64,000 bases of DNA from Alphaproteobacteria bacterium. GTDB lineage: Bacteria > Pseudomonadota > Alphaproteobacteria > JAQWUY01. Within the stretch, counting starts at the first letter, position 1; each line of letters opens with the position of its first letter. Position numbers and translations under genes: made by a program. Positions 36,277 through 62,093 of the stretch are shown one piece after another. Under the pieces are notes generated by a model, which saw only the letters and a program-made list of their open reading frames with translations, did not search any database and was not told the origin of the DNA. The DNA is taken from assembly GCA_965232465.1 (NCBI GenBank), contig OZ246977.1:1348649-1412648 (forward strand), given 5' to 3'.

Positions 36277-36563
36277 TTAAATACACCTTTAAAAACGATA
36301 CCCTTATAAAATAATAATCATAGTATAAAATGGAAAAGTATGGTTGTCAATGGTTTTTTGTAGTATTTTATGGTAAAACATGGATATTATACACAAATAC
36401 TATGCTACACCCCTTGTTTTTAAAAGATTTCAGAGTATATAAGACAAAAAAATAATTCTTTTTTTATTTCATTAAAACAACATGATACATAAAATATCTT
36501 GCACATCCCCCTCCCTCCCATAAATTACAATCTATGGTGTTATATTATTATGGTTTTTAATAC

Positions 36564-36593
36564 TTGAAAAAAAAAAAAAATCCTCTGTATACT
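36564..36593 (+). promoter_or_regulatory. Putative sigma-70-type promoter of the adhesin gene with an A14 homopolymer in the spacer
   Basis: TTGAAA (36564-36569), an 18-bp spacer made of 11 A's plus tcctctg, then TATACT (36588-36593). The A-run spans 36567-36580. Confidence 0.4.
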
Positions 36594-36662
36594 TATATTG
36601 TGGTGCCTGTTTGGGCGGGTGCCGAATTAAACTGTAATATTAAGATATTGAGGATGAAACAC

Positions 36663-39600
36663 ATGAAAAAATCTTTATGGGCAACGGCTAGTGTTATTGT
36701 GCTGGCATATACAACACCTGTATTCACCGATGACACGGACAAAGTGGTCAATGCCACGGGGAATATGTTTATGGATAGCATAAACAGAACAGGGTTTTTT
36801 GAATGGATAAGCGGCGGGGTCGGCTATACAGATAAAACCCTAAATTGGGATATTACCGCTTTTAGCAACCTGTCGGAAACAAAAGACACGGTTACATATT
36901 TGCAAACTTCTTATAATCGTCAAAAGTCAGTGAATCGATTAAACTTGGGGTTGGGGTATCGGAAGCGTATTGATACAACTGCTACCCCATTAATTGTTGG
37001 GGTCAATGCGTTTTTTGATAGCAAGGACGGGACAAAGAATATACTTGCTTTTAAGGCATCGGACAATTTCCAACGGTTTAGTGTGGGGGCGGAACTGAAA
37101 ACCGCACGGTTTGACATGGCGGCAAACCTATATCGTCGCATTGGCAATACCATTATCGACGATAAGAAAGTATTACAAGGCTGGGATATCACCGCTAAGG
37201 GCAATATCCCCAATTATGAACAGGTGTCTGTGGGGGTGGGGACCTATAGATTCGATGGGGTTGAGGATACAGTTGTTAGGGGCAATAAATTGATTGCCGA
37301 ATTTACCCCCAATGCGGTGGTAACAGTGCGGGGCACATATGACAAACCCAATGGCGAATCGGCACAGACCGATATATCGGTCGATTTTAAATTGGCATTC
37401 GACAAAAGTATACAAGACCAATTAAAATCCGCCCCTGTATCCGGTACAGATGCCGTATGGCACAAACGCTATGACAAGGTCGAACGGCACTATGATATTA
37501 AAACAGCGGAGGCACAGTCCACCCCCACATTAGGCACCGCTATCAGCAGTGCAGATTTGGCAACAAATAACATCAGTTCTGGCGATGGGACAACAGAACA
37601 ATCTGCATACGCCTTACAAAACAGCCAAAACTATGAGATACTAAACTTTGCTGGCACAATCGATAGTACTGATACTATTGAGGTCACTGTTGCAAAAGTG
37701 AGTGGCGATGGGGTGAAAGGCACGGACTTTCAGTTATACGCAAGCGATGGGACAACTGTTATTGCATTAGCGGATGTAACCGCAGATAGCAAGTTCGAAG
37801 ATAAAGCGGGGGGCAGAGAAGCCACCTTACAATTTACTTTTAGTGCGGATGGATTTAAAGACCGGGTGGTATTCGTTAAAACCAACAGCACTTTCACCGG
37901 TACTTTAACAATGGCAGATCTTGTTCTCCCCTATGCGTCTGGGACTGTAACGGTTAGCACCGCCGATATATTGGGTAAATTAACTGTATCCGGCAGCCAA
38001 ACACAAAAATCCGATTGGACAATTAAGAGCCTAACAGACACAGATAGTCATGCGAATCTTACGGTGAATGGCAAGACTCTGACTGTATCCGGGACAATCG
38101 GGTCCCCTACCACTGTAACCGCTGTATTCGAACATCCTGAGTATGCGGATCAGACCAAAACCTTCGAACTGTCCACAGGTGCCGGTACATTGGGGGGAAC
38201 GCCTACGGGGTTATCGGGTAAATGGGGCAAAACCTTTGCTGTGGATTATAAACTAAAAACTTCTGATACGGTGGGGGATGTAACAGTATCGTTTGATACA
38301 GGTGCCGATTTCAGCTTTAAGATTTTACCCCGTACTGATGGCAGTAAGGGAGGTAAGACCGCCACCACCGCAGGTATTATTGACACATCAAAAACAGCGA
38401 TTAACGCCAGTACTGGGGCAATTAATGGGGCAGCACTGACCAAATCGGGAACCTTGTTAGTGGAAATAGTCCGTGCCGCCAAAGGCGGATTGCCAGAGCT
38501 AACAGTATATGAAAATATTACGGTGAATAAACAAGTACTGGGTACAGATGTAACCACTATCCCGACCATATCGTTAAACAGTGGCGACAATAAGTGGAAA
38601 ACAGGGAATAGCAAATTTGACCTAAAATATACCAACCTGCCCGGCGGTCTGGCGGCGAATGCGTTTTCGTGGGCGGTTGCCAAAAAAACAGGGGCGGCAC
38701 CCAGTGGTACGGTCCGAATCGATAATGATGGTAAAATCAGTGGAGCAACCTCCGCTGGTACAGTGGTTATCACCTTAACCGCCAAAGGGGATAAATACAG
38801 TGGTAGTTTAACCTTAGCGGACTTTGCCATTGCCAAGCAAACAACGACAGATACGCTAACTATGGCGGATCTTGTCATATCCTATTCAGATGGGGATGGA
38901 AATAAAGTGGTAAGCACCGCAGAGATACTGGGGCAATTGTCCGTATCCGGGGGGCAAACACAAAAATCCCAATGGACACTGGTAAGCGTTGCCGACACGG
39001 ATAACAATGGCGATCTTGCTGTAACGGGTGGTGGCAAAACCCTAACCATATCCGATGAGATTAAAACCAAAACAACGGTTACCGCCACATTGTCGCATCC
39101 TGCGTATGAAAATAAGACGGCGACATTTGAATTGTCGACGGAGCCATCGAAGATAAGTACAACGGCACCCAGTGGGTCAGGTAAGTGGGGTAAATCGTAT
39201 ACTACGAATTATAATTTAAGACGTACGGTGGGGAGTGTAACATTTACTAATGCAGATTACACCTTCTCTATTGTGCCAACGGGCGATGATGGCAGTGGTA
39301 AGACACCCACCACCTCAGGTATTGTTGCCAGTGGGCAAAATGCTATAAGTAACCCCAGAACCGGGGCGATTGATGCCAGCAAATTAACCAAATCGGGTAC
39401 CTTATTGATAAAAATTGTCCGTGCGGCAAAAGGTGCTGGTGCCGCCCGAGTAGATGCGGTAACTGAATACCAAAACTTTACGGTGAGCAAACAGGACAGC
39501 ACAGACCACACCGGCTTTACTGTGTCCGCTGGGGCTATTGCATGGGCAACGGCAAGTACAGCGGTTACATATACCCTAACGAATGGTCCTGCGGGTATTG

Positions 39601-41924: not shown

Positions 41925-41940
41925 TACTTTTAAATTTATA

Positions 41941-41963
41941 AAGGGGCTTAGCCCCTTTTTATT
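41941..41963 (+). terminator. Rho-independent terminator after the adhesin gene
   Basis: aggggc-tta-gcccct hairpin followed by a T-run. Confidence 0.7.
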
Positions 41964-42000
41964 GTTCATATATTGACAAAATACATTACGATATAATTAC

Positions 42001-42271
42001 TTGATTCAATATATAGTCAATTCGGCATAAAATGATTCACCATAATTATACTGCACATTTTATTTTGTTGGTTATATGGTGAATCTAAGGGGCTAACGCC
42101 CCAGCTTCTCTGTACATTCTTGCGTTTAATGTGGATTTACCCATGCTTTGCATGACAAAAACCCACACATGTTCACCCCACTTTGCACCCCGATCGGACA
42201 CCACAATGCCACTATGGGGCAGGCGGTTGCAACCGCATTTTGTCAATCAAATTATATTTGATTGACTATAT
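42001..42271. mobile_element. MITE-like non-coding repeat, copy A (271 bp), with 11-bp terminal inverted repeats ATATAGTCAAT
   Basis: Left end atatagtcaat (42001-42011) and right end attgactatat (42261-42271). Internal 25-bp perfect palindrome gtcaatcaaattatatttgattgac (42242-42266). The ~80-bp left module is repeated at 50155-50240. TA dinucleotides flank both ends. Confidence 0.5.
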
Positions 42272-42427
42272 GATATGCTTTACAATCAGGATTGATTTCT
42301 GATTGTGTAGTATGTGATCTCCTGCTTCTTTTCGTCATAAGTAAGTCTCCTTAGTGTTAAATGTGGTATATGCTGAATATAACACATAGGGTAATAAATA
42401 ACACTTACACAAATTTCATGACAGACT

Positions 42428-45058
42428 CTACAATTTTTCAAGGACTAATTTAGTTTTTTTCACAATTTGCTGGGCATCTGCCAAAGATTTTTTATCTTTT
42501 TCGATGATATGGGTGGGGGCTTGGGATAAGTATCCTGCGTTGCTTAATTTTCCCGAAAACTTTTTCACATCGCCTTGGGCTTTTTTCAATACTTTGCTTA
42601 GCCGTGTGATTTCTGCATCTGTATCAATGGCACCATCGAAAGGGATAAACACTGTGGCACCATCTTGTAAGAATTGCCCCGCCCCTTGAATCGGTGTATC
42701 AATCTGTATAATCGGGTTGGTTTTTGCCAGTTTTTGTATCAAATCTGCATGCGTTTGCAATGCTTGATGCCGATCAGTGTGTACACCCATAACTTTTACA
42801 TCAATAGTATTTTGGGCGGGAATGTTCATTTCTATGCGGATTGAGCGTAATTTTGTAATAAAGCGTTTGATATAATCAATTTCATCTTGGGCAACCTTAT
42901 CTGTATTATCCGCTGATTGTTGTAACCACCCTGCCCCGATAAGAGCTGTATCTTTGGTACCAAACTCTGTCCATAATTCTTCGGTAATAAAGGGAATCAT
43001 TGGGTGCAGAAGTTTTAAAATATGTTGATACACCCAGCCCATTGTATGGCGGGTTTCGATAATAATATTATCGTTTTCTGATCGATATAAAGACTTGGAA
43101 AATTCTACATACCAATCACAAAATGTCCCGCGGACAAAATGATATAATACATTGGAAGCTTCCGAAAAACGATAAGATTCGATGGCTTTTTCGAAATTGT
43201 CTTTTGCTTGTATTAAATCAGCAATAATCCAGCGGTTAATAGGGCTATTTGGACTGGCTATATCAAAGTCCTTGGGGGCATACGCTTTGTTTATTTCACA
43301 AAACTTGCCCGCATTCCAAATTTTGGTTAAGAATCCTTTTGAACCTTCGACCCGTGATGTACTGAATTTAATGTCTTTTCCTGGTGTAGAAAGGCTAGAT
43401 AATGTAAACCGTAAAGCATCCGTTCCATATTGTTTAATCAAGATTAGAGGATCGATAACATTGCCTTTTGACTTGGACATTTTTGCCCCTTTTTCATCCA
43501 ATACTAAGGCATGTACGACCACCGTATGAAAGGGTTCAACCCCCATAAAGTGAATTCCCATCATCATCATACGGGCAACCCAGAAAAACAAAATATCAAA
43601 TCCTGTTACCAAAATATCATTTTGATAATATCTGTCTAATTCAGGGGTATTTTCTGGCCAGCCCAATGTGGAAAACGGCCACAAGGCGGATGAAAACCAA
43701 GTGTCCAAAACATCACTGTCTCTTTTCAATACCACATCATCACCAAACTGTACTTTTGCCTGTGTATACGCATCTTGTTTTGTATCCGCCACAAATACAG
43801 TGCCATCTGGTGCATACCAAGCGGGAATCTGATGTCCCCACCACAATTGACGGGAAATACACCATGGTTGGATATTATCCATCCAGTCAAAATATGTTTT
43901 TGTCCAATTTTCGGGAATAATTTTTGTACATCCTGATTTAACCGCTTCAATGGCGGGTTGTGCCAATTTTTCTGCATCCATATACCACTGATCGGTCAAA
44001 AAGGGTTCAATCGGCACCCCCCCTCTGTCCCCATAAGGTACTGTGTGGGTATATTCTTCCACATGATTTAAATATCCAAGTACTTCCATATCTTCAACCA
44101 CTTTTTGACGACAGATAAACCTTTCGAGTCCTCTGTATTTATTTGGTACATTATCATTCATATACCCATTTTTGGTTAAGATATTGATACTTTCCAAGTC
44201 TTGGCGTTTGCCCACTTCAAAATCATTAAAATCATGGGCGGGTGTTATCTTTACCGCCCCTGTGCCTTGTTGGGGATCGGCATATGCATCGGCAACAATG
44301 GGAATATACTTACCCGTAAGCGGTTGAATACACATCTTACCCACCAAATCTGTATACCGTTCGTCATCAGGATGCACAGCAACACCCGTATCACCAAGCA
44401 TGGTTTCCGGGCGAGTGGTACCCACCGTAATAAAGGTGTTTTCAAGCCCTACAATAGGATAGTTAAAAAACCACATATGTCCATTGACTTCTGTTTGAAT
44501 CACTTCTAAGTCAGAAATTGCTGTTTCCAGTTTTACATCCCAATTCACCAGCCGTTTGTCACGGTATATAAGCCCTTGGTTATACAATTCGACAAAAACT
44601 TTGACAACCGCCTTACTCAGCCCTTCATCCATGGTAAAGCGTTCATGATTCCAATCGGTGGAATTGCCCAATCTGCGTTGTTGTTGGACAATCTGTCCGC
44701 CAGATTGGCGTTTCCATTCCCACACTTTTTCCAAGAACCTATCCCGTCCCAAATCATGGCGTTTAAGTCCTTGTTTATTGAGCATCCTCTCGACCACCAT
44801 TTGTGTGGCAATACCCGCATGGTCTGTCCCTGGTACCCACAAAGTGTCAAAACCTTGCATGCGCTTATACCTTATAATAATATCTTGCATAGTATTATTT
44901 AACGCATGACCCATATGTAAATTGCCTGTTACATTAGGGGGGGGAATGACCACAGAAAATGGTGTCCCCACACCAGAAGGGGTAAAATATCCCCCTTGTT
45001 CCCATTTGTCATATATATCTTGTTCCCGATTCGCATGCAAAAAGGTTTTGTCTAACAT
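42428..45058 (-). CDS. valS: Valine--tRNA ligase
   Basis: 876-aa class I aaRS with HMGHALNNTMQD (HIGH) and KMSKSKGN (KMSKS) motifs and a C-terminal coiled coil. Confidence 0.95.
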   Translation of the reverse strand: MLDKTFLHANREQDIYDKWEQGGYFTPSGVGTPFSVVIPPPNVTGNLHMGHALNNTMQDIIIRYKRMQGFDTLWVPGTDHAGIATQMVVERMLNKQGLKRHDLGRDRFLEKVWEWKRQSGGQIVQQQRRLGNSTDWNHERFTMDEGLSKAVVKVFVELYNQGLIYRDKRLVNWDVKLETAISDLEVIQTEVNGHMWFFNYPIVGLENTFITVGTTRPETMLGDTGVAVHPDDERYTDLVGKMCIQPLTGKYIPIVADAYADPQQGTGAVKITPAHDFNDFEVGKRQDLESINILTKNGYMNDNVPNKYRGLERFICRQKVVEDMEVLGYLNHVEEYTHTVPYGDRGGVPIEPFLTDQWYMDAEKLAQPAIEAVKSGCTKIIPENWTKTYFDWMDNIQPWCISRQLWWGHQIPAWYAPDGTVFVADTKQDAYTQAKVQFGDDVVLKRDSDVLDTWFSSALWPFSTLGWPENTPELDRYYQNDILVTGFDILFFWVARMMMMGIHFMGVEPFHTVVVHALVLDEKGAKMSKSKGNVIDPLILIKQYGTDALRFTLSSLSTPGKDIKFSTSRVEGSKGFLTKIWNAGKFCEINKAYAPKDFDIASPNSPINRWIIADLIQAKDNFEKAIESYRFSEASNVLYHFVRGTFCDWYVEFSKSLYRSENDNIIIETRHTMGWVYQHILKLLHPMIPFITEELWTEFGTKDTALIGAGWLQQSADNTDKVAQDEIDYIKRFITKLRSIRIEMNIPAQNTIDVKVMGVHTDRHQALQTHADLIQKLAKTNPIIQIDTPIQGAGQFLQDGATVFIPFDGAIDTDAEITRLSKVLKKAQGDVKKFSGKLSNAGYLSQAPTHIIEKDKKSLADAQQIVKKTKLVLEKL

Positions 45059-45147
45059 AAATATTTCCTTATTATATCAAACTGTTTTATCAACGCTTTA
45101 ATTTTAAAAATCGTTACATATGCGTTTCTTTAAATCCAGAGAATATA

Positions 45148-46416
45148 TTATAAATCGCTAAATTTATCAACCGTCATGTTACCTGTTATGGTTAATATAT
45201 CGACAATTGCCAAAGCGTATTGTTTTAATCCTGTCACATATTGTTGGGTGGCATTGATTTCGGCTTCTATTTTTTCCAACAATGCATCAGAGGTGGATTG
45301 TCCTGCGTTATATTTCACCTGTTCCGTCTCAACCGCCACTTTGTTTGCTTGTACAGTGATTAAATTGGCATCCAACAGATTTTTTTGTGTCACATACACC
45401 TGCCAAAATTGCCGTAAGGTATTACGGACTGTGTTTTGTTCTACTTTTAGGCGAATGGCATTATTGCCCAGATTCAAGGTGGTTTTTTCAGTCTTTAGGC
45501 GGTTACTTTTGTTCACATCAAATGTTATGTTGTATTGAAGGTTAATTGTATTGTTTAATTCCCCCCCATCGATGATATTTTTACGGCTTGATGCGGATAA
45601 AGTAACCGTACCTTTGCGTTCCGCATGTTCGGATGCAAGGGTATTTTTCAGTTTATCCCTATTATTAATAAGGATTTTTAAATCCGGATTGTGAACAAAT
45701 GCCTGTTCGATGGCCATATCAAGGCTAGCAGGCAATGATACTTTCGACAAATCAGGAATCGGCAAGTTTTCAGGAGCTTTAAACCCAACAATCCGTTCGA
45801 ATTCTTGTTCGATATTACTTAATTGCACTTCTAAGCCAATACGGGTGGCTTTAATGCGGGCAAATTTTGCCTGTGAATTCAATTTTACAGATTCGGACAA
45901 AGTGCCATTTTGAAAATTGATATTATCGCGTATCATCGCAGATTCAGCGGATTTTTCGCTCTGTAGTTGCGTTTCATATTGCCGTCTTAATTCGATAAGC
46001 GAAAAATAAGTATTTATAATTGTTTTAATGACCGAAGTTTCTGTTTTATAATATGTCAAGTCCGCATTTTTTTCGTCGATGAGTGCATTTTCATAAGCTA
46101 ATTCTTCACGTCCAAATGTGTATGCCGTCCAGCGCCCCGATAAGGTTGCAGAAGATGCATTGCCATCACGATTTACAGATTCCAATCCACCTGTAAATCG
46201 GTTGCTGGCATCCACAGATAGCGACAATGTGGGTTTAAGTTCCGCCACCAATCGTTCTGTATCCAGCTTAGTCGTGTCCCGTACCGCCCGTGCCAAATTA
46301 ATTTCATCCAATGTATTTAATGCCAAATTTAAGGCATTATAAAATGTAACCGGCTGTGCATAAGACACCCCCAAAAAGGTAAATATACCCATGCTGATAA
46401 GTTTCGTTTTTAACAT
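45148..46416 (-). CDS. TolC-family outer membrane efflux channel
   Basis: Signal peptide followed by two tandem TolC-like helical/barrel repeats. Confidence 0.75.
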   Translation of the reverse strand: MLKTKLISMGIFTFLGVSYAQPVTFYNALNLALNTLDEINLARAVRDTTKLDTERLVAELKPTLSLSVDASNRFTGGLESVNRDGNASSATLSGRWTAYTFGREELAYENALIDEKNADLTYYKTETSVIKTIINTYFSLIELRRQYETQLQSEKSAESAMIRDNINFQNGTLSESVKLNSQAKFARIKATRIGLEVQLSNIEQEFERIVGFKAPENLPIPDLSKVSLPASLDMAIEQAFVHNPDLKILINNRDKLKNTLASEHAERKGTVTLSASSRKNIIDGGELNNTINLQYNITFDVNKSNRLKTEKTTLNLGNNAIRLKVEQNTVRNTLRQFWQVYVTQKNLLDANLITVQANKVAVETEQVKYNAGQSTSDALLEKIEAEINATQQYVTGLKQYALAIVDILTITGNMTVDKFSDL

Positions 46417-46659: not shown

Positions 46660-48294
46660 TTACAAAGTACCTTGTTTAATATGCGTAGGCAGTGATAGTA
46701 TCGTATTGTGTATTTCGTATATGTTTGAAACAGTTTTAAGGTGCATGTTGCTGGAATGGGCGGTGACTGTGTCGCCGACTGATAGGCGTTTTAGGTGGCG
46801 GTGTAGGCTTTTTTGATAATTGCCCTGCATAATCTGTTGTTGTTTGGTAATTTCGTCCGTTTGGGTATCACCCCCACGATTGCCCATCAACACATCAAAC
46901 ATCAACAGCGTACCCTGTCGCAGTTGTTCATACATGACCTTAATTTCTTGCCAGCCTTTTTCTGAAAATAATATCTTATTGGTGTACTTTTCCTTTGCCA
47001 AATCCATAAATACCCCTGATACCAACTCAGATGCCTTGCTTAATTCCACCGCATACGATATGTATTCCCGTATCTTCCTTGCCTCATCCTTGGTGAGTGT
47101 CCCTTTGGGAATGTCCGTATAAAACTGTTTTAAATCCTCAACCCGTTGCTGAATATTGGTATGGGATTTTTGCATACATTCGGTGATATTCGTGTTGTAA
47201 TTACGGTACGACTCTTCCACCAAACTGACGCTGTTTGCCAAGGTGTCTAGGATAAATAAAATTTCCTTGCTCACATACCCATGAATCGTCACACTGTCCA
47301 CACCCTCCCGTTGGGCTATGGATAAAATACCATTGGTATCTGTCTGTGTATCAATGGGATTGTCATAGTGTTGTGCTATATTGATAATCTTGGGGATAAA
47401 TGGTATCCATACCATTAAGGCAAAGTTAAATACCATATGCGTATAAATAAGCGATTGCTCCTGCAACCCAAACAAATATGCCTGTACCGTATCGGGGGCA
47501 TATCGTACTATGCCGATTAACACAAGTACACACATAACCGCCATTACACCCCGTAGTATCATGATAAGTTTTGGGACTGTGCTTTCGTCTTTTTCCCCAC
47601 CCCGTGTCATCCAGTAGGCTATAAACGCACTGCCCAAGTTTGCCCCTAGTATAAACGCTATTCCTGGAACAGCGGATAAGCTACCCGTATGTACGAGGGT
47701 TACCAAGGTTAAAATAGACGCCACACTGGAATGCATGGCAAAAGTAAGCACCGCCCCCACGATAAATGCCAACAATAAATCAGATTCAAAATAATAGACA
47801 ATATCCACAAACAACGGCATACTTGCCACCGGGGCAATAGCGGATTTTAACATTTGTAGGGACAGAATAATCAACCCCATACCAAACAAGATATGTCCGA
47901 TGTGTTTACGGTGGGCACTGTCAGACTTCAAATGCATCCACCCGCCAATGGCTAGCAACACAGGAATGAACCCAGATATATCAAAGGTAAGCACCCGAAG
48001 CACAATAGCCGAGCCCACATCCGCCCCTATGGCAACGGCAAGAGCAATGGCAAGCGGAATAATCCCTGTTGCCACCAACCCAGAGGTCAACACGATCACC
48101 GCCGTAGCCCCCTGCATGGCGATGGCAAGCACCGCCCCCAATGCAACTGCCCGTATATTACCATACTTGGTCATAAGTACATTGGCAATCAAACCACCAT
48201 ACGCTTTCTTAACAGACGACCGAACCATGTTAATCGATACCAACATCAACATCACACCCGCCATCAACGAAAATATAAATTCTAATAATATCAT
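46660..48294 (-). CDS. Na+/phosphate cotransporter family protein (NptA/YjbB-like, with PhoU-like C-terminal domain)
   Basis: Two Na/Pi-cotransporter repeats (N-terminal MILLEFIFSLMAGVMLMLVSINMVRSSVKKAYGG) and a cytoplasmic PhoU-like C-terminal half. Confidence 0.75.
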   Translation of the reverse strand: MILLEFIFSLMAGVMLMLVSINMVRSSVKKAYGGLIANVLMTKYGNIRAVALGAVLAIAMQGATAVIVLTSGLVATGIIPLAIALAVAIGADVGSAIVLRVLTFDISGFIPVLLAIGGWMHLKSDSAHRKHIGHILFGMGLIILSLQMLKSAIAPVASMPLFVDIVYYFESDLLLAFIVGAVLTFAMHSSVASILTLVTLVHTGSLSAVPGIAFILGANLGSAFIAYWMTRGGEKDESTVPKLIMILRGVMAVMCVLVLIGIVRYAPDTVQAYLFGLQEQSLIYTHMVFNFALMVWIPFIPKIINIAQHYDNPIDTQTDTNGILSIAQREGVDSVTIHGYVSKEILFILDTLANSVSLVEESYRNYNTNITECMQKSHTNIQQRVEDLKQFYTDIPKGTLTKDEARKIREYISYAVELSKASELVSGVFMDLAKEKYTNKILFSEKGWQEIKVMYEQLRQGTLLMFDVLMGNRGGDTQTDEITKQQQIMQGNYQKSLHRHLKRLSVGDTVTAHSSNMHLKTVSNIYEIHNTILSLPTHIKQGTL

Positions 48295-49091
48295 TGGCGT
48301 AATAATATATGTTGTAATCCTGTGTCGTTATGGGCAAGTACATGCATTGGGGTGTATAAAAATTCTGATAAGGTGCCATTATAATACCCTTTGCCCCCTG
48401 CTTCTTCAACAATGATTAAGCCTGCTAGTACATCCCAAATGCTGACCTCGTATTCATAATACATTTCTGCTTGTCCCATTGCCACACATGCCAATGAATA
48501 GGATGCACAGCCGAAAAAGCGATATACCATATGCACATCTTCTATACGGCGGATAGTGTCGATATAATCGTCTATTTTCCATCTTACAGAACGGCTAAAA
48601 ATAGCCTTTGCCCTGTTGAATTCTGTTTCTTTTGATACGCATATGGGGGTATCATTCATGTATGCCCCATGCCCTTTGACCGCCCATAATAACATATTTA
48701 ACATAGGATAATATAGCATGCCCATAACCGCTTCGCCTTGGTCAATATAAGCAACGGATATACCCCATAACGGTATACCTGATACAAAATTACTGGTACC
48801 GTCAATAGGATCAAGCACCCATATACCCATTGTATTGGTATTGGTCTGTTTTGCAAACGCCTCCCCTTCTTCGGTCAGCATACGATCGGTTTTAAATGTT
48901 TCTGCTACCTGTGTCCGCCACAAATCGTCAATTGCCTTATCCGCCATGGTCACAAAATCTTGTTTGCGTTTTTCTTCGACAAAATTATCCGTATGCTCAG
49001 CTCGCATGCGGTGTGCCATTTCACCTGATTGTAATATGAGGTCTTTGGCGAAATCTAATCGGTGTTGAATATGTTGGGCGATATGTGTCAT
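48291..49091 (-). CDS. Inositol monophosphatase family protein (SuhB-like)
   Basis: IMPase motif WVLDPIDGTSNFVSGIPLWGISVA. Confidence 0.8.
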   Translation of the reverse strand: MTHIAQHIQHRLDFAKDLILQSGEMAHRMRAEHTDNFVEEKRKQDFVTMADKAIDDLWRTQVAETFKTDRMLTEEGEAFAKQTNTNTMGIWVLDPIDGTSNFVSGIPLWGISVAYIDQGEAVMGMLYYPMLNMLLWAVKGHGAYMNDTPICVSKETEFNRAKAIFSRSVRWKIDDYIDTIRRIEDVHMVYRFFGCASYSLACVAMGQAEMYYEYEVSIWDVLAGLIIVEEAGGKGYYNGTLSEFLYTPMHVLAHNDTGLQHILLRQ

Positions 49092-50149
49092 GGTTTCCTT
49101 TTCCTAGTTGTTTTACGATATACAGGCTGTATTTGTTGAAATCTTGTCCTGTACGTTATATGCTTTGTTTCACAATGTCCTTCGATAAAATGCAAAGCAC
49201 TGCGGGCTTGTTCAGATAAATTTTCTTCGATAGTCGAAAGTTGTACACTTGTAAGATTGCTCTCATTTTTATTATCGAATCCTAATATTTGTACATCTTT
49301 GGGGACTTTTATATGTATATCTTTTAAACTTTCAAGTACGGCAATACTCCACCTATCAATAACACCGAAAATACTGTCTAATTCGTTTAGGTCTTGCTTA
49401 ATTTTATAGGCAAGATTATAAAAGTCTTGATAATAATCCTTTTTGGCTTCATAGATCACCAATTCATATCCCTGTGATACCACATAGCTTTGAAATATCT
49501 CCATACGGCTACGGATGGTCAAGGACATGTCTTCTGCACAGGATAAAACCCCTATTTTTTTATGTTTCCGGGGGGATAGCATTTTTAACGCCAATCGGGC
49601 AACCGCCATAGGACTGTCACATACATGATACGCATCTTGAATACTAGGGTTGCGTTGCATCAGTACCATAGGGATATTGTGATCTTTGCATTCCTTAACC
49701 ATTTCAAGACTGGGATCTTCGGCTGTGCAAATAATGCCCTTTACCCGATAAGCAATAAATTGACGAATAAGCATATCAATACCCTGTTGCTGTTGTACAG
49801 GCATAATCAAAGGGTGCATGTTTTGTAAAATAGTTTCTTGTATCACCGAATATAAACGGGAACTAGCAAGCGGGGCTAGGTTGGTGGCAAACATATCAGT
49901 ATTATTTTCATTGTAATTGGGGTTGGTGGAGGCGACAATACCGATTAAATTTGAATGTTTGCTAAAAAAACCGCTGTTTATATAGTTGGTACGATACCCC
50001 AAAGTATTTGCCGCATCAATCACCTTTTTACCGACACTTTCTGATATATATGCCCCCTCAACAAATGCCCGTGACACAGTCGACTGGGATACGCCCGCCA
50101 ACCGTGCCACATCCATAGAGGTAATGCGATTGCCTAATTTTCTTGTCAT
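49088..50149 (-). CDS. LacI-family transcriptional regulator
   Basis: N-terminal HTH ITSMDVARLAGVSQSTVSRAF plus a periplasmic-binding-protein-like effector domain. Confidence 0.85.
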   Translation of the reverse strand: MTRKLGNRITSMDVARLAGVSQSTVSRAFVEGAYISESVGKKVIDAANTLGYRTNYINSGFFSKHSNLIGIVASTNPNYNENNTDMFATNLAPLASSRLYSVIQETILQNMHPLIMPVQQQQGIDMLIRQFIAYRVKGIICTAEDPSLEMVKECKDHNIPMVLMQRNPSIQDAYHVCDSPMAVARLALKMLSPRKHKKIGVLSCAEDMSLTIRSRMEIFQSYVVSQGYELVIYEAKKDYYQDFYNLAYKIKQDLNELDSIFGVIDRWSIAVLESLKDIHIKVPKDVQILGFDNKNESNLTSVQLSTIEENLSEQARSALHFIEGHCETKHITYRTRFQQIQPVYRKTTRKRKP

Positions 50150-50154
50150 GCCAT

Positions 50155-50288
50155 ACTATAGTTGATTTGGTATAAAATGATTCGCCATATTTATTATACT
50201 ATACATTTTATTTTGTTGGTAAGTTTAAGGGGCTAACGCCTCTCGCTCAGTATTATAAGTCAATCAAAGTATATTTAATTGACTATAT
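50155..50288. mobile_element. MITE-like repeat, copy B (134 bp), same family as 42001-42271
   Basis: Left actatagttgat and right attgactatat terminal inverted repeats. The shared module ggtataaaatgattcgcc...ttaaggggctaacgcc is followed by the near-palindrome gtcaatcaaagtatatttaattgac (50259-50283). The element overlaps the ugpQ stop codon and ends 6 bp from the lacI-family start. Confidence 0.5.
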
Positions 50289-51105
50289 TTCTAAAATCAC
50301 TGATACATTTTAATTCATCTGTTTGAAACACCCGAACGCCCATATCAAAAAGACGTCCCCAAATAGCACTGGGATTTTCCAAGCCTGCATCATCATGATA
50401 CCCTTTGATGCCATGGGAACACATCAAAGTGTTTACCCATATTTTTATATCATGTTCCTTAAAATATGTATAAACATGGGATAAAGTATCGAGGCTGTCA
50501 TATTTAGATTCCACCACCACTGCATCCATATAGGTTGCCAAGGCACAATATTGTTGCCAGTTATCTTTGTTAAAATGTAAAATGGGCATACCCAAACACC
50601 CTATAGTATCAGATATAGCCTGTAAATCTTGTATGCTTTGCACATCAGCTACATTATTTTTGATATCCACGAAATCTTGTGTATCTGTGCGTTTTATGAC
50701 CTCTGTAATATGGGGGAGTAAATGTCGATATTTAGCATCTAAGTCCAGATACACTTTCCCCCGTGCCATATCCACAAATTCTTCTAAGGTTGGTATAATC
50801 TGTTCCGTAATATGGGTATCTCTGCCGTCTGCGTATTTCAGCCGAAACTTTTTAAGATCTTGCATGGTTAACGATTGTGGGTCAATATCCACCCCCACCA
50901 TACGCAATAAACTCTTATCATGCATAACAAACAATACGCCATCGGCACTTTGTTGAATATCCACCTCCACAATATCATAACCATTATCAATACAGTGTTG
51001 CAGGGACAGCAACGAATTTTCAGGGGCATTACGCCACGCCCCACGGTGGGCAACAATGCCAAAAGTATTATCGAGTGATTTTATAAAATCCGTATAAGTC
51101 ATCAT
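50275..51105 (-). CDS. ugpQ: Glycerophosphodiester phosphodiesterase
   Basis: GDPD family; HRGAWRNAPENSLLSLQHCIDNGYDIVEVDIQQSADGVLFVMHD. Confidence 0.85.
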   Translation of the reverse strand: MMTYTDFIKSLDNTFGIVAHRGAWRNAPENSLLSLQHCIDNGYDIVEVDIQQSADGVLFVMHDKSLLRMVGVDIDPQSLTMQDLKKFRLKYADGRDTHITEQIIPTLEEFVDMARGKVYLDLDAKYRHLLPHITEVIKRTDTQDFVDIKNNVADVQSIQDLQAISDTIGCLGMPILHFNKDNWQQYCALATYMDAVVVESKYDSLDTLSHVYTYFKEHDIKIWVNTLMCSHGIKGYHDDAGLENPSAIWGRLFDMGVRVFQTDELKCISDFRNIVN

Positions 51106-51137: not shown

Positions 51138-52205
51138 TTATATGCGGGCGTGTGTATGTTTATTGAAAAAATGTAAGTCCTCAGCCAAGCAGGATATATA
51201 GATGGTATCACCCGCCGATGGCACCGTATTTTCAAATATGGATATATACATATCTACCCCATTACACACCACACGCATGGTGCTATATGCCCCCATATTT
51301 TCCACAAAACTTACTTTTGCTACGATTGTATTATCCATGGGCATATCGCTTATAATGATTTTTTCTGCCCGCATGCCCAATAAAACATCATCTGCTGTTA
51401 TATTGTGTGTATCACAAACAGATTGCCAATTTATGAGTACGCTACCTAAACCTTGTACAGCAGATAAAGGCACTATGTTCATCGCAGGGGTACCAATAAA
51501 CTGTGCCACAAATACAGATGCAGGACGATTATAAATCATTTCTGGTGTATCATATTGTTCGACAACACCATTGTTTAAAATCATAATTTTATCAGCTAAT
51601 GTCATGGCTTCTATTTGATCGTGGGTTACAAAAATGGAAGTTGCCCGAATATCATGATGTAAATCGGTTAATTCCACCCGCATTTCATGGCGTAATTTTG
51701 CATCCAAATTTGACAAAGGCTCATCGTATAAAATCACCTTGGGCTTTCGTACAATGGCACGGGCAATTGCCACCCGCTGTTGTTGTCCACCAGACAACTG
51801 TGAGGGACGGCGATCCAGTAAATGGGACAAGTCAACAATTTTTGCCACCTCAGCAATACGGGTGTGCCGTTCTGCTTTTTTTACCTTTGCCACTTTCATA
51901 GCATATCCAATATTATCGGCAACCGTCATATGCGGATATAAGGCATAATTTTGAAATACCATCGCCAGTCCCCGCTTTTTCGGTTCTTGGTCTTGTACTG
52001 CCGCCCCGTCGATATAAATTTCGCCACCGGTTACGGTTTCAAGCCCGGCAATCATATTCATTAAAGTGGACTTTCCACAGCCACTGGGTCCTAAAATAAC
52101 CGTAAACGCATTCTTATCAAAACTGACATTTAAGTTTTTAATAACCGCACCCGATCCATAATCTTTGGTGACATTTTTTAATTCAATATATTTTTTTTGT
52201 GTCAT
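51138..52205 (-). CDS. ugpC: ABC importer ATP-binding protein (UgpC/MalK family)
   Basis: Walker A GPSGCGKST, signature LSGGQQQRVAIARA, Walker B ILYDEPLSNLD and a MalK-type C-terminal regulatory domain. Confidence 0.85.
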   Translation of the reverse strand: MTQKKYIELKNVTKDYGSGAVIKNLNVSFDKNAFTVILGPSGCGKSTLMNMIAGLETVTGGEIYIDGAAVQDQEPKKRGLAMVFQNYALYPHMTVADNIGYAMKVAKVKKAERHTRIAEVAKIVDLSHLLDRRPSQLSGGQQQRVAIARAIVRKPKVILYDEPLSNLDAKLRHEMRVELTDLHHDIRATSIFVTHDQIEAMTLADKIMILNNGVVEQYDTPEMIYNRPASVFVAQFIGTPAMNIVPLSAVQGLGSVLINWQSVCDTHNITADDVLLGMRAEKIIISDMPMDNTIVAKVSFVENMGAYSTMRVVCNGVDMYISIFENTVPSAGDTIYISCLAEDLHFFNKHTHARI

Positions 52206-52472
52206 ATATATATCCTCCTTATATTATATCTTTAATCCACGGGAAATAATCCGATGATTAAGCATGATAATAATCAGCGGAATAACCGTTATCATAAGCC
52301 CTGCGGTCATAATCAATGTATAATCTGTAAGCCCTTCATAAGGGTCTTCTCTTAGGGAATTTAACCCAACCAATGCTGGCTGTATTTTTGGATTGTTGGA
52401 GGCAATTAACGGTCAAAAGTACTGATTCCATCCCCCCGTAAATAAAATTAAAAATAATCCTAGATAGTGTAG

Positions 52473-52847
52473 TCACGAGATTTTTGTCCATAATGCGATG
52501 CATCTGATTTGTACAGCGGCGAGAAATGAAGTGGTGTTTTTAGCGTATCTTGTTGCAATACCACGCCATCGTTTTAGGTGTAGAAACGCATTTTCCACTA
52601 AGCACCGCCAATGATACAGGTGTTCATCATACTCCCTTTGTTCTTTGCGATTCTTTCTTGGGGGAATAACAGGCTCTATACCTTGTTGTTTTGCTAGGTG
52701 TATGATATGCTCACTATCATATCCCTTATCTGCCAACAAATACTCTGCACTGATGCCTTCAATCAATCTGCCTGCTTGTGTGCAATCAGCCGTGGTACCG
52801 TTCGTAATAAGTATTCTGACCGGCATACCATGCGCATCCACGGCCAA
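52473..52847 (-). CDS. IS5-family transposase, C-terminal DDE ORF (orfB), reached by a -1 shift near AAAAGGGGG
   Basis: The frame upstream of the annotated start reads ...GLNTKIHLAVDAHGMPVRILITNGTTAD, the conserved DDE_Tnp_1 core. It overlaps orfA by 85 nt. Confidence 0.75.
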   Translation of the reverse strand: MAVDAHGMPVRILITNGTTADCTQAGRLIEGISAEYLLADKGYDSEHIIHLAKQQGIEPVIPPRKNRKEQREYDEHLYHWRCLVENAFLHLKRWRGIATRYAKNTTSFLAAVQIRCIALWTKIS

Positions 52848-53236
52848 ATGTATCTTCGTGTTGAGCCCCCTTTTGTGCGGCTCATATCTTGATTACCGCC
52901 TAGTGCACCAGATGCATGAGGATGCACCTTACAATGACTAGCGTCTATTATTAACCATTCATAATCCGGATCTGTAACTAAAATTTCCAACAACTTTTCC
53001 CATATCCCCTTATCACGCCAGCGGATAAAACGACGGTGCGTGTTACTCCAATCCCCTAAATCAGGCGGTAAGTCACGCCAAGGGGCACCTGTGCGTATAA
53101 TCCAAAATACCGCATTGATAAATAAACGGTTGTCTTTCGCTATACCACCCCATGTGCCTTTACGACCCGGTAAGTGTGGCTCTAATAATTCCCATGTTTT
53201 ATCACAAATATCATGGCGTCTGTGTGCTAATGTCAT
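52763..53236 (-). CDS. IS5-family transposase, N-terminal ORF (orfA)
   Basis: MTLAHRRHDICDKTWELLEPHLPGRKGTWGGIAKDNRLFINAVFWIIRTGAPWRDLP is the canonical IS427-group N-terminus. Confidence 0.8.
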   Translation of the reverse strand: MTLAHRRHDICDKTWELLEPHLPGRKGTWGGIAKDNRLFINAVFWIIRTGAPWRDLPPDLGDWSNTHRRFIRWRDKGIWEKLLEILVTDPDYEWLIIDASHCKVHPHASGALGGNQDMSRTKGGSTRRYIWPWMRMVCRSEYLLRTVPRLIAHKQAD

Positions 53237-53987
53237 CTCAATGTCCTTTATAATAGTGTTAATATCAAAAATACTATAACATAGTTCTTACCTCATGACT
53301 ACACTATTTAGTATAGTAGGCTTAGATTGAGGAATTAAAATATCCACTAAGAAGCGAAAGGGACCTGCTCCATCCATTTGTGCAGCCTTTACCATAGAGG
53401 GTGGAATCGTACGGAAGTACTGTACAAATACCAAAGTACCACCGGCTTCAATCATTAACGGCAAACTCATCCCCCCATAGGAGTTTAAAATATTAAACCG
53501 CATATCCAATGAATAGCCAAATATAAATGTCCACAAACCCCCTAAGTTTGCAATGGTATTTATGGGTAAAAAGATATTGGATGCCACTTGATACATAACA
53601 ATGGTTAGGGTATCCCCTGGTACCAAAATAATAACTATTACACACCCATACATCAGTTTGCGGATAAAATTGCCAAAAAACACGATGGTATAGGCAGCCA
53701 ATATGGCAAATAATATGCCCCCGCCACCAATCAATACACCTAAAATGGCACTGTTTAAAATTTGTCGTGGAATAAGTGTTTCTGTGCTAACCGTATATAG
53801 GTTTTGCCATAAATGTGTACCAAGTACCAACTGTAATTCCCCACCATTTTGTACAAAATCTGCATATGAAGTACTTGCAGTGGTTAAAATAATATACAAT
53901 GGCGTAAGTATATATATGCACCCCAATATCAAAACTGCATACGCAGTAATGTTTATGGAGCGGGTGTTTTCTATCATATTCATATCA

Positions 53988-54939
53988 TTATCTTTCATAT
54001 TTTATATGCTTACCAAGCAACAGAAATTGTAACCCTGCGATAGTCAATCCGATGATTAAAATAATAATGGTTTGTGCCGCCGCCCCCGATAAATCGAGTC
54101 CCACAAACGCATCCTGATATAATTTGTATATAATCAATGTGGTTTCCCCACGGGGATTACCTTCGGTCATAATGTTAATTAACGCAAATGATGATGTTAA
54201 ACCTTGGTTAATTTCCAATAACATGGTGATAAATAATTGTGGCGTAATAAAGGGCAACTGCATATCCCATAACCGTCGCCATGCCCCCGCACCATCCATA
54301 GCCGCCCACCGGAGTTACACTACCAATTGCAGCAGATAACCGTCGCCATGCCCCCGCACCATCCATAGCCGCCGCCTTATGCAAAGTATTTGGAATAGCC
54401 TGTAAACCGGCGAGTATAACCACAAAATTAAAGGGAATATTGCCCCATATACTGGCAATATAAATCATAATCCATGCGTGTAAAGTGTTGTCCCGTGGAC
54501 TCCATAGTTCGGGGTACTTATCGGCAAATCCCGCTAAAAACCCCATTTGTGGGTCAAGTATAAATACAAACACCACACCAGCACTAGCCGCTGCAAACGC
54601 CTTTGGCCAAATAAATACACTGCCAATATGACGGGTGCCACGCACACCTCTGTCCACTGCTAAAGCCAATATTAAAGATATGGAAATTGCCAAAAACGAA
54701 GAGATCATCATGTATATGATTGTCCGTATAACAACTGTGATAAATTCCCCATCGCTCAGCAATTCTATGAAATTATCAAACCCCACATATTCTGTACTGC
54801 CCCCAAATGGGGATTCCAAATGAAACGCCCAATAAAACGATACCAATATGGGTGTAAAGAAAAATAACATTACTAATATAAGGCAGGGGGAGGCAAATAG
54901 CATAGCATGTAAAGTATTATGAAAGTATCCTTGTCGCAT
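53988..54939 (-). pseudogene. ugpA: ugpA-like ABC permease pseudogene (frameshifted by a 67-bp insertion/duplication)
   Basis: The 36-bp sequence aaccgtcgccatgcccccgcaccatccatagccgcc occurs at 54271-54306 and again at 54338-54373, separated by 31 bp. MDGAGAWRRL is therefore encoded twice and the frame breaks. Both flanking frames are MalF/UgpA-like. Confidence 0.75.
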
Positions 54940-55015: not shown

Positions 55016-56317
55016 TTATGGTAATTTCTTGCCTTTGTGGACTTTTTCAAACCGTCTTAACAGTTTGTTACCTTCGGATTGCGTGTGCCGTAATGCTTCT
55101 GCCACTGTTTTTTTACCATCGACAGCCTTGGCAATTTCCACTTTGAACACATCACGGAACTGCGGGTAAAATCCTAAGCGGATACCACGACTGTTTTCAC
55201 CTGTAGGGGCGTTTAAGGCGGTAAGTCCCATTTCCACCGCACCAAATTCTGGTTTTTCAGTTGCCCCTGTTTTTTGTAATTCCACAACCACATCATTGGT
55301 CATGGGCATATACCCTGTTGCCTCTGTTACCAAAATTTGCCATTCAGGTTTACGGATAAAATCTAAGAATGCTTTAATACCTTCGGCTTTATCTGCGTGT
55401 CCTTTCATCACCCAAATAGCACCGCCACCGATGAATTGGTTATGCCGTTTATATCCTTCGTACATCGGTGCCAATCCAACCATGAGATTATCACCCAGTG
55501 CATCGAATGCCTTTCTATACCCCCCTGTGGAGGCTTCAATCATGGCACAATCCCCCGCATCAAAGGCTTTTCCATAGTGGTTTTGTTTCAGATCTTTATT
55601 GACACTTACAAGACCTTGTTTACGCCATTCTAATAAATTGGTCAGGTGTTTTTCAATCAAACCGCCAGTAATTTTATATTCGGCATCCAGCCCACCATAA
55701 CCATTATTATTTGTCGCTAATGCTGTGTTGTGTCTGGCACCAAATTGTTCTATTACACGCCATGGGTGTAAATCAGTGGAAAAAATACACTGTTCACCAT
55801 TGGTCTTTAGCTTTTTACCTATCCGTACCAATTGTTCCCAAGTTTCGGGTAATTTTGTTTCCCCAACGGAAGCTAATTTTGTTTTGTTACCATAAAACAG
55901 AAAGGTGGAACCATTATAAGGTTGTCCCCATAAATTATCATTTGAATCTTGGTAATACGACTTTGACCCATTGGAATATGATGCCCAATCTGCATCTGTG
56001 GCAACTTGATAGGCTGGTATAACAGCCCCAGACATTAACATATCAGCTGTGCCCGCATCATAAAACAATATCATTTCTGGATGGTTTTTTGCCCGATATG
56101 CGGCAATTGCCTTGGTCACAATATCCCTATAAGACCCTTGTGCTATACAAGAAACTGCGTACTTATCCTGCGACTCATTAAACGCATCACAGGCTTGTTC
56201 TGTGGCAGGAAACAATGTTTTATGACTCGATGTCCAAAAAGTCAACTGGGTTTTGGTTGCTAATGCAGGGGTAGACAACATCCCCAACATTATAAGCGAT
56301 GATATAATTTTTTGCAT
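55016..56317 (-). CDS. ugpB: ABC transporter substrate-binding protein (family 1, UgpB-like)
   Basis: Signal peptide MQKIISSLIMLGMLSTPALA with an AGGAGA ribosome-binding site; SBP_bac_1-type periplasmic protein. ATG 56317 preferred over the track start at 56446. Confidence 0.75.
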   Translation of the reverse strand: MQKIISSLIMLGMLSTPALATKTQLTFWTSSHKTLFPATEQACDAFNESQDKYAVSCIAQGSYRDIVTKAIAAYRAKNHPEMILFYDAGTADMLMSGAVIPAYQVATDADWASYSNGSKSYYQDSNDNLWGQPYNGSTFLFYGNKTKLASVGETKLPETWEQLVRIGKKLKTNGEQCIFSTDLHPWRVIEQFGARHNTALATNNNGYGGLDAEYKITGGLIEKHLTNLLEWRKQGLVSVNKDLKQNHYGKAFDAGDCAMIEASTGGYRKAFDALGDNLMVGLAPMYEGYKRHNQFIGGGAIWVMKGHADKAEGIKAFLDFIRKPEWQILVTEATGYMPMTNDVVVELQKTGATEKPEFGAVEMGLTALNAPTGENSRGIRLGFYPQFRDVFKVEIAKAVDGKKTVAEALRHTQSEGNKLLRRFEKVHKGKKLP

Positions 56318-56782
56318 AACTATTCTCCTTATAATATAAATTTCTCTAAATGCAATGTGTATAAAAAATGTGATGCATATACCAACATACACATTAATTA
56401 TGAAAAAAATTATATTGTAAAAAATAGTACAAATCAATATAAGCAAATTGCGTCAGTATATATACCCACACAAAAATATTTTTTATATCATATTGAAAAA
56501 TAACAATATTTATAATATAATGCGATTGTTAAAAAAATCTAAAAAACACAATCCCCAAAAAATATGTGAATATTTACCCACATTATAAGAATAATTACCC
56601 ATAATAGATTCTAAATCTTAAAATACTTATGCATACAACCTGAAAAACATACTGCAAAACTAACCCATATGGCAGCATTTTTTATTCTTAGCCATCTGAA
56701 ATCTCTGATTAGCTGATAAACAAAGAATGCTGGGTGACCACACCCCAATAATTGTCCCACTTTTAGGTTAATGCTTTTTGTC

Positions 56783-56814
56783 ATATTGTCAATGATAAAT
56801 ATCATTGACAATAT
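56783..56814. repeat. 32-bp perfect palindrome ATATTGTCAATGATA-aa-TATCATTGACAATAT, two terminal-repeat-like arms of the MITE family placed back to back
   Basis: 15-bp arms around a 2-nt centre. The arm matches the MITE terminal repeat ATATAGTCAAT at 10 of 11 positions. Confidence 0.5.
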
Positions 56815-56829
56815 TTTGTGTTTTGGCAC

Positions 56830-56920
56830 TTGTGGGTTGTATCCTAATGCACTGTGTGAGTGGATGTGGTTGTATTCGTATTGCCACTGTCCTATGATTA
56901 CTTGTGCTTCTGATAGTCTC
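56830..56920 (-). pseudogene. Remnant of the C-terminus of an rve-integrase-type (IS3/IS481-like) transposase
   Basis: [32 protein letters not shown] matches the conserved C-terminal box (W..YNH.RPHSALGY.TP) of DDE-integrase transposases. No other transposase sequence lies nearby. Confidence 0.45.
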
Positions 56921-56923
56921 ATT

Positions 56924-57100
56924 TTGTCCGCCGGTATTATTGACCCAGCAAAAATCGTTCGCTGTGCCATTCAAGATGCCGCATCCATTGTTGGTTTGTT
57001 AATCACCACCGAAACCATGGTGGCTAATGAGCCTGTGGATCCTGCTGCAGCACCTGCTATGCCAACGGGTGGAACAGGCGGTATGCCAAGCATGATGTAA
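56924..57100 (+). pseudogene. groEL: groEL 3'-terminal fragment (last ~59 codons only)
   Basis: [58 protein letters not shown]-stop is the Cpn60 C-terminus, including the Gly/Met-rich tail. The upstream part of the gene is absent. Confidence 0.7.
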
Positions 57101-61287: not shown

Positions 61288-61495
61288 AAAGCTATAAACG
61301 CTTAAAACCAAAAAAAATCGAATGTAATCATTTTATACGAATTTAACTATAATTTTTTTTGGCTGTAATTTTTTTAAAAAAAGCCTTGCATGGCGATTGA
61401 ATGGGAAGTGAATTTTACTTTATCATTTATTGGATATGTAGTATATATTATATATTAGGTGTCATAGGCTATCAAATATATAAAAGAATGTGTTA

Positions 61496-62093
61496 TATGA
61501 AATTGGATATAAACCCACATTTTGAACAGGCTTTGCGGATCATGGAAAATACCTGTCAGCATCTGTTTATTACGGGCAAGGCGGGGACGGGGAAGTCTAC
61601 TTTGTTGGAATGTTTTTGTGCCAATACCCATAAACAAGTGGTGGTGTTAGCACCCATGGGCGTATCAGCACTGCATGTTAAGGGACAGACCATTCACAAG
61701 TTTTTTAACTTTTATATTGATGTGACCGTTGAACAAATTGAATATGGAGAAATCGTTTCAAGGAATCCCGAAATATATAAAAGTATTGATACCATCATTA
61801 TCGACGAAGTATCCATGGTGCGGGCGGATTTATTGGATTGTATCGATGCGTTTATGTCCGCATATGGTCCGCAACAAGACACACCTTTTGGCGGGGTGCA
61901 AATGGTGTTTATTGGCGACTTGTACCAACTGCCCCCGGTGGGCAAAGGGGAAAGACAGGTATTTCGGGACTATTATACATCACCCTATTTTTTCAGTGCG
62001 GATGTTATGAACGATATATCACTGGATATTATCGAACTGGAAAAGGTCTATCGACAAAAAGATGCGGACTTTATCAAAATAAACAGCAAATAA
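61496..62093 (+). pseudogene. Truncated Pif1/RecD-like DNA helicase (N-terminal ~200 aa only)
   Basis: Walker A FITGKAGTGKST, Walker B IIIDEVSM and the Pif1 signature KVYRQKD.DFI are followed directly by a stop. The C-terminal helicase domain is missing and recO follows. Confidence 0.6.

Follow-up and report, generated by a model that had tools for sequence, protein, structure and literature searches.

In Escherichia coli, the importer for sn-glycerol-3-phosphate and glycerophosphodiesters and the accompanying phosphodiesterase UgpQ are encoded by ugpBAECQ. An operon sharing this gene order, from the binding protein to a GDPD-family phosphodiesterase, was analysed in a 64,000-nucleotide stretch of DNA from an alphaproteobacterium (GenBank assembly GCA_965232465.1, contig OZ246977.1, positions 1,348,649 to 1,412,648 of the forward strand). 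This whole stretch is referred to as the window, and all coordinates are window positions. Compared with E. coli ugpBAECQ, the window operon contains an additional LacI regulator and an inositol-monophosphatase (IMPase)-family phosphatase, and both of its permease genes are dead. The UgpE-like permease gene is split by an insertion sequence (IS) and carries a premature TGA, and the adjacent UgpA-like gene is frameshifted by a 67-bp insertion. All three lesions are located within 1.8 kb, and the rest of the window is densely packed with long intact open reading frames (ORFs). The locus is very probably a case of ordinary, recent multi-hit pseudogenisation, in which both membrane subunits were lost to three independent mutations.

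Multiple-hit pseudogenes are known from niche-restricted bacteria. As in those cases, several independent lesions are found in one dispensable transporter together with an intact IS that is probably multi-copy. In contrast to those cases, the rest of the window is gene-dense and largely intact, and the genome is not heavily degraded. The described relatives of the inserted element are transpos_IS5_3 elements of approximately 0.85 kb, e.g. the copy on plasmid pSn of Simkania negevensis. They share with it the DUF4096 and DDE_Tnp_1 domains, a transposase of approximately 254 aa and the same slippery motif, and likewise possess short terminal inverted repeats and a small duplication at a CTAG site. 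From known IS5-family copies the window element differs in sequence (transposase at most 81% identical, DNA approximately 70%), and it is a distinct element without a name.

The UgpE-like gene and its lesions comprise the following features:

53998 to 52224, minus strand: UgpE-like permease pseudogene, whole, split by the IS and with a premature TGA.
53312 to 53998, minus strand: 5' part of the pseudogene, codons 1-229 (translation; Pfam BPD_transp_1; 65% identical to residues 6-227 of the orthologue on metagenome contig L002).
52224 to 52460, minus strand: 3' part of the pseudogene, codons 231-308 plus TAA (translation; 60% identical to residues 229-306 of the L002 orthologue).
52464 to 53308, minus strand (operon orientation): IS5-family insertion sequence, 845-bp core (terminal inverted repeats; Pfam; NCBIfam).
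53309 to 53311, no strand: target-site duplication, gene-proximal copy, TAG on the plus strand and CTA on the gene strand (read from the sequence).
52461 to 52463, no strand: target-site duplication, distal copy, TAG on the plus strand (read from the sequence).
52413 to 52415, minus strand: premature TGA at Trp codon 246 (alignment; TGG in orthologous loci).

The 5' part is translated from the ATG at 53998 and ends with the residues ...DILIPQSKPTI. The break is located just past the EAA-loop motif (KAAQMDGAGPFRFLVDILIPQSKPTI). An IS at 52460-53311, splitting ugpE after these residues, had been proposed in a preceding reading made from the letters of the window (the sequence-only reading). This was borne out, and the core of the element was refined to 52464-53308. 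The 3-bp duplication TAG directly abuts both IS ends, and the rebuilt empty site is CTAG (YTAR-type). With one CTA kept, the empty site CCT ACT ATA CTA GGA TTA is translated in frame as PTI-LG-L, and the reconstructed ...PTI-LG-LFLILF... aligns gap-free with ...PTIYGLYLLMF... of the orthologue. Since both frame and gapless alignment are restored with one TAG copy kept, CTAG is identified as the insertion target. The span of 52265-53998 previously given for the gene was correct at its right edge, but its left edge lies slightly inside the gene, the natural stop being the TAA at 52224-52226.

Downstream of the IS the frame reads LFLILFTGGWNQYF, followed by TGA and then by PLIASNN..., and remains open to the TAA. 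Frame and TGA had been recognised before, but the peptide quoted for this part ('LFLILLILFTGG') carries a small transcription slip relative to LFLILFTGGWNQYF. The TGA lies 16 codons past the IS insertion point and is the only in-frame stop in the reconstructed 308-codon frame. An alignment with intact homologues, which the sequence-only reading had proposed as a check, gave W at the TGA column in 13/13 sequences, inside the motif GGWNxY(F/L)WPL, with the reconstruction aligned free of gaps. At the DNA level, the codon is TGG in all four orthologous loci that could be read (contigs L002-L005). JGI metagenomes scanned for the TGR site gave 0 matches. Judged from this alignment, a sole in-frame stop at a near-invariant residue is not a chance pattern. 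The claim of an independent TGG-to-TGA nonsense change is upheld by these comparisons and by codon usage, which shows TGA to be a stop (see below). Orthologues of permease E are intact at 304-306 aa. Relative to them, the reading frame of the UgpE-like gene is disrupted; the gene is a pseudogene, with a presumed loss of function.

The inserted element contains two overlapping reading frames and a predicted frameshift site:

52763 to 53236, minus strand: IS orfA, 157 aa, DUF4096 (Pfam).
52473 to 52847, minus strand: IS orfB, DDE catalytic domain (Pfam DDE_Tnp_1).
52866 to 52874, minus strand: slippery run A AAA GGG GG, predicted -1 transposase frame shift (motif shared with the Simkania copy).

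The terminal inverted repeats ATAGTGTAGTCACGAG (52464-52479, plus strand) and ATAGTGTAGTCATGAG (53292-53307, minus strand) are identical at 15 of 16 positions. With up to 2 mismatches allowed, this pair gave the only two matches in the window, where 0.04 were expected by chance. Fusion of orfA and orfB by a -1 shift yields a 254-aa transposase, which was aligned end to end with single-chain IS5-family transposases of 253-257 aa at up to 81% identity. The fused protein scored 284.9 bits against NCBIfam NF033580 (transpos_IS5_3; cut-off 110), with 244 of its 254 residues covered. From these domains, scores and identities the element is a member of the IS5 family, in agreement with the earlier assignment. 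At the DNA level it is 68-70% identical to IS5-family copies on plasmids of Cardinium, Bandiella and Simkania. The copy on Simkania negevensis plasmid pSn (70.5% DNA identity) shares both the slippery motif (ACAAAAGGGGGCTCAACAC) and the two-frame layout, and the test motif for the slippery site, AAAAGGGGG, and the frame layout match this copy. The Simkania copy is annotated as one 761-nt coding sequence, a length that lacks one base to be divisible by three. As the two-frame layout is common to both, a split transposase is normal for this IS group and no sign of decay. The two-frame layout with a YTAR-type target corresponds to the IS427-like group. By sequence, the IS looks intact and is probably still active. 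No second IS copy was found within the 64-kb window. The truncated ORFs of the locus are on record from one contig of 2,630,883 bp. Since the orfA sequence is found there in its exact form and also as another variant of 157 aa, the IS is probably present in multiple copies in the genome. A promoter and terminator scan across the locus gave counts not above the shuffled background.

The lesion in the neighbouring permease gene had been missed by the sequence-only reading, and the verdict of true pseudogenisation given there is strengthened by it:

53988 to 54939, minus strand: UgpA-like permease pseudogene, frameshifted by a 67-bp insertion (tblastn with the intact 294-aa orthologue).
54269 to 54373, no strand: 67-bp lesion in the UgpA-like gene, with 38-bp direct repeats at 54269-54306 and 54336-54373 and filler at 54307-54335.

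The UgpA-like ORF is broken into pieces of 243 aa and 103 aa, and MDGAGAWRRL occurs in both. At the break, a perfect 38-bp direct repeat surrounds 29 bp of unique filler (CTGCTGCAATTGGTAGTGTAACTCCGGTG), with a spacing of 67 bp. Since 67 is not divisible by three, the reading frame shifts. In tblastn searches with the 294-aa orthologue, residues 1-201 matched in frame -2 and residues 191-294 in frame -3. Removal of one repeat and the filler restored a 294-aa ORF collinear with the orthologue. The 38-bp pair is the only short-range direct repeat of at least 22 nt in the 64-kb window. For the 29-bp filler, no source was found in the window, the fetched loci, IMG/VR viral contigs, JGI metagenomes or GenBank phages. 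The 38-mer is not palindromic, and no notable secondary structure was detected in the duplicated 38-mer or the filler.

A 67-bp unit is typical of CRISPR repeat-plus-spacer units with repeats of approximately 36 bp. No further integration reaction is known to us in which so short an insert is enclosed by so long a staggered duplication. By geometry alone, the spacer-sized 29-bp insert within a perfect, repeat-sized 38-bp target duplication resembles ectopic integration by Cas1-Cas2. Such off-target ('neo-CRISPR') spacer integration is known from E. coli experiments (Nivala et al. 2018, as cited in PMC7054753, PMC6698737, bioRxiv 10.1101/148544). In contrast to ectopic integration, no protospacer source was found in the sequence sets named above, and the duplicated segment is non-palindromic. 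No CRISPR array was found in the 64-kb window and no cas gene among its annotated ORFs, the window being 64 kb of a 2.63-Mb genome. The chance that the 67-bp lesion represents a natural off-target spacer integration, i.e. a one-unit 'neo-CRISPR' inactivating a gene, would be very slim.

Once the three lesions are taken out, the two permease genes read as fully open frames of 308 and 294 codons. The IS target duplication and the 38-bp repeat are both perfect, the transposase is intact, and the five other operon genes are still intact ORFs. From these sequence features the lesions look young. For an estimate of substitution rates, a relative-rate test was performed with the window against L002 and with L003 as outgroup, for permease E, permease A, the binding protein and the ATPase. 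For permease E, 29 unique changes were counted in the window and 37 in L002 (p = 0.33). For permease A, the numbers were 19 and 24, respectively (not significant). The intact binding protein and ATPase gave similar, non-significant results. Long-term relaxed selection was rejected, since no rate acceleration was detected in any of the four genes. As there are neither further lesions nor a rate acceleration, the period of relaxed selection must be short. The earlier conclusion of relaxed selection is correct in that the locus received several hits, three in number, but it does not extend to a long period.

The following course of events is proposed. An IS5-family element would have transposed into the CTAG of the permease-E gene and duplicated 3 bp, by which transmembrane helices 1-4 and the EAA loop would be parted from the C-terminal helices. 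A G-to-A transition would have converted the codon of the invariant Trp-246 to TGA and cut off the last 62 residues. A 67-bp insertion, composed of a 38-bp target duplication and the 29-bp filler, would have frameshifted the permease-A gene beyond its EAA motif. Each single lesion should be sufficient to abolish the permease dimer. Whichever hit came first would thus have killed the dimer, and the remaining two would then have been neutral and free to accumulate.

Genetic code 4 was examined because the TGA coincides with a conserved Trp in a genome of 40% guanine plus cytosine (GC). If TGA were read as Trp, or were a recoding or read-through site, the IS would be the sole damage to permease E. 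In reduced, low-GC genomes, reassignment of TGA to Trp classically shows itself by TGA at conserved Trp positions, and here the TGA is found exactly at the position where every homologue has Trp. The codon usage of the window speaks against this. Among its ORFs of at least 150 codons, 15 of 53 are terminated by TGA, including mfd, ftsI and several mur/fts genes, and the Trp codons within these 53 ORFs are all TGG. In-frame TGA is also missing from UgpB, UgpC and ValS. As TGA ends long ORFs and Trp is always encoded by TGG, TGA is a stop in this genome and codon 246 is a single G-to-A nonsense change. Code 4 was dismissed for the same reasons. Moreover, the IS splits the gene 16 codons upstream, and read-through of the TGA could not rescue it; the probability of a harmless TGA is practically negligible. 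It is likewise highly improbable that one or more lesions are sequencing or assembly artefacts, or minority variants in a population whose gene works. Such errors would have to be sought in the base call at 52413, in an IS copy that was collapsed or misplaced and in the local duplication of 67 bp. The locus is known from one sequence only, the IS probably belongs to the multi-copy repeats, on which assemblers tend to err, and small duplications can arise in long-read consensus sequences. However, a clean 3-bp target duplication at CTAG with exact restoration of the frame would not result from misassembly, the TGA is a substitution and not a homopolymer indel, and the 67-bp insert holds 29 bp found nowhere else in the window, which is not compatible with simple consensus stutter.

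Alternatively, the loss itself may have been selected, if inactivation of the importer was advantageous (toxic substrate, phage or bacteriocin receptor, or expression that was wasted in a host niche). On this view, the multiple hits would be the mark of selection for loss that was repeated or reinforced. Selected loss would be in keeping with damage to both permease genes next to five flanking genes that are intact ORFs, with the recent origin of all lesions and with the IS and gene remnants in the region just upstream. But one null mutation suffices for it, and extra hits in a dead complex are the neutral expectation. Selected loss differs from ordinary multi-hit pseudogenisation for the first hit alone, so that the two are not mutually exclusive. 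Taken together, we consider selected loss unlikely. Several points nevertheless weigh against ordinary pseudogenisation. A selected loss of the transporter would give the same picture. The locus sequence comes from one assembly, and for the 67-bp lesion an assembly artefact is conceivable in principle. Just one further sequence was found for this species, contig L007 (ENA sample ERZ26168041), which is 99.4% identical over window positions 36511-45408 and ends approximately 350 bp past valS, short of the operon. Exact-protein look-ups of UgpC, the truncated UgpE ORF, GDPD, UgpB and IMPase in a gene-position index found nothing. Finally, the lesion count is all that speaks for relaxed selection, and an orthologue of 64% identity cannot resolve a short neutral period.

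For annotation, both permease genes are to be flagged as pseudogenes, and the IS is to be entered as a single element whose transposase is frameshifted. Metabolic reconstructions of this alphaproteobacterium should leave the transporter out. The organism would recently have ceased to need or tolerate uptake of glycerophosphodiester-type compounds, which provides a small clue to its niche. The locus also illustrates that a TGA at a conserved Trp requires a genome-wide check of stop codons before a code reassignment is claimed. A specialist is unlikely to be surprised by the decay; the insertion of 38 + 29 + 38 bp in the neighbouring gene is the only part with upside.

For comparison with intact relatives, homologues of the operon proteins were used. 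Among full-length homologues, P0002 (64% identity), encoded on the ENA metagenome contig L002, is nearest to the reconstructed permease E. There, all seven operon genes are intact and in the same order as in the window, and the operon proteins of both loci are 55-76% identical. With the L002 proteins as tblastn queries, single full-length matches were obtained in the window for the binding protein (70%), ATPase (63%), GDPD (62%), LacI (55%) and IMPase (59%). Only split matches were obtained for permease A (two frames) and permease E (either side of the IS). A scan of species-representative genomes for the locus gave only an irrelevant match in Clostridia. The host ValS is 79% identical to those of two genomes of 2.6-3.0 Mb and approximately 58% identical to those of Rhodospirillales, Sneathiella and Minwuia. 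By its sequence, the host is an uncharacterised low-GC alphaproteobacterium. On L002 itself, a second ABC transporter (ATPase plus two permeases) at positions 1-2704 is called as six short fragments. This fragmentation is due either to decay or to indel errors of a long-read assembly at 2x coverage.

The operon consists of seven co-oriented genes on the minus strand, spanning 48.3-56.3 kb of the window (Pfam and NCBIfam), in the order binding protein, permease A, permease E, ATPase, glycerophosphodiesterase, LacI regulator and IMPase-family phosphatase. Besides the two permease pseudogenes, these are:

55016 to 56317, minus strand: UgpB-like periplasmic substrate-binding protein gene, intact, 433 aa, ATG at 56317 (Pfam SBP_bac_8 and SBP_bac_1).
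51138 to 52205, minus strand: UgpC-like ABC ATPase gene, intact ORF (Pfam ABC_tran and TOBE_2; full-length match to orthologue).
50275 to 51105, minus strand: glycerophosphodiester phosphodiesterase gene (GDPD plus DUF4996), intact ORF (Pfam; tblastn with orthologue).
49088 to 50149, minus strand: LacI-family regulator gene, intact ORF (tblastn with orthologue; NCBIfam).
48291 to 49091, minus strand: inositol-monophosphatase-family gene, intact ORF (tblastn with orthologue; NCBIfam).

The best NCBIfam matches of the four transporter components were UgpB, UgpA, UgpE and UgpC. The binding protein scored 228 bits (cut-off 411), permease A 188 bits (cut-off 335) and permease E 169 bits against the UgpE equivalog NF008210 (cut-off 297). 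The ATPase, with 445 bits against the UgpC subfamily (cut-off 432), is the only transporter component that reaches its cut-off. The system is named Ugp-like and not Ugp because the UgpB, UgpA and UgpE scores are below their equivalog cut-offs. The name ugpE used in the sequence-only reading is therefore approximate; it is that of the best match and in keeping with the operon context (UgpB-, UgpA- and UgpC-like partners plus a glycerophosphodiesterase), with a score short of the cut-off. Permease E contains Pfam BPD_transp_1 (PF00528; 46.5 bits, cut-off 26.4) and the EAA loop. Among PDB sequences it matched AlgM2 (4tqu_N, E = 4.6e-9) and SugB, with the WNxYFW motif aligned. Based on these domain matches, it is a type I ABC importer permease of CUT1 type. 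Judging from sequence comparisons, the importer may have another phosphodiester or a polyol phosphate as substrate than E. coli Ugp, and the IMPase-family and LacI genes of the operon give a hint in the direction of a variant substrate.

In addition, an extra segment of approximately 30 residues (FLPINTIANLGGLWTFIFGYSLDMRF) is present in the window permease E and its six nearest homologues (P0002-P0007), at alignment columns ~188-217, i.e. residues ~147-176 of the reconstructed protein. It is missing from annotated UgpE and other sugar permeases. By this segment, permease E and P0002-P0007 constitute a distinct CUT1 subfamily. The companion genes vary: GDPD plus DUF4996, LacI and IMPase are found in the window (48291-51105) and in L002 (12036-14702), and a histidine phosphatase, a metallophosphatase, an ADP-ribosylglycohydrolase and an adenosine deaminase in L003-L005 (L003 8115-12902). 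The substrate is probably not plain glycerol-3-phosphate, and glycerophosphoinositol-like compounds are a guess for the window operon.

Just upstream of the binding-protein gene, at 56611-57100, a C-terminal fragment of an IS3-type integrase was detected (rve_3, E = 1e-5, minus strand). It abuts a GroEL C-terminus remnant of approximately 55 aa (...GGMPSMM, plus strand, E = 4e-3). From this arrangement, an IS apparently destroyed a chaperonin paralogue and later decayed in its turn. In view of these IS3-type and GroEL remnants, the upstream region of the operon is also scarred. Within this region, at 56783-56814, a perfect palindrome with a 14-bp stem (ATATTGTCAATGAT-AAAT-ATCATTGACAATAT) is followed by a T-run; it may represent a terminator, an operator or the end of an IS.

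Elsewhere in the window, an inverse autotransporter of 1786 aa (invasin-like, IAT_beta) with four or five diverged internal repeats of approximately 1 kb is encoded at 36564-41924 (L007 3487-8753). Beyond it, the flank is rimP-nusA in L007 and mraZ-rsmH-ftsI in the window, which suggests either that the strains differ by a rearrangement or that a contig is chimeric. At 61401-62093, a PIF1-like helicase ORF of 230 aa comprises only the P-loop half and may be a truncated gene.

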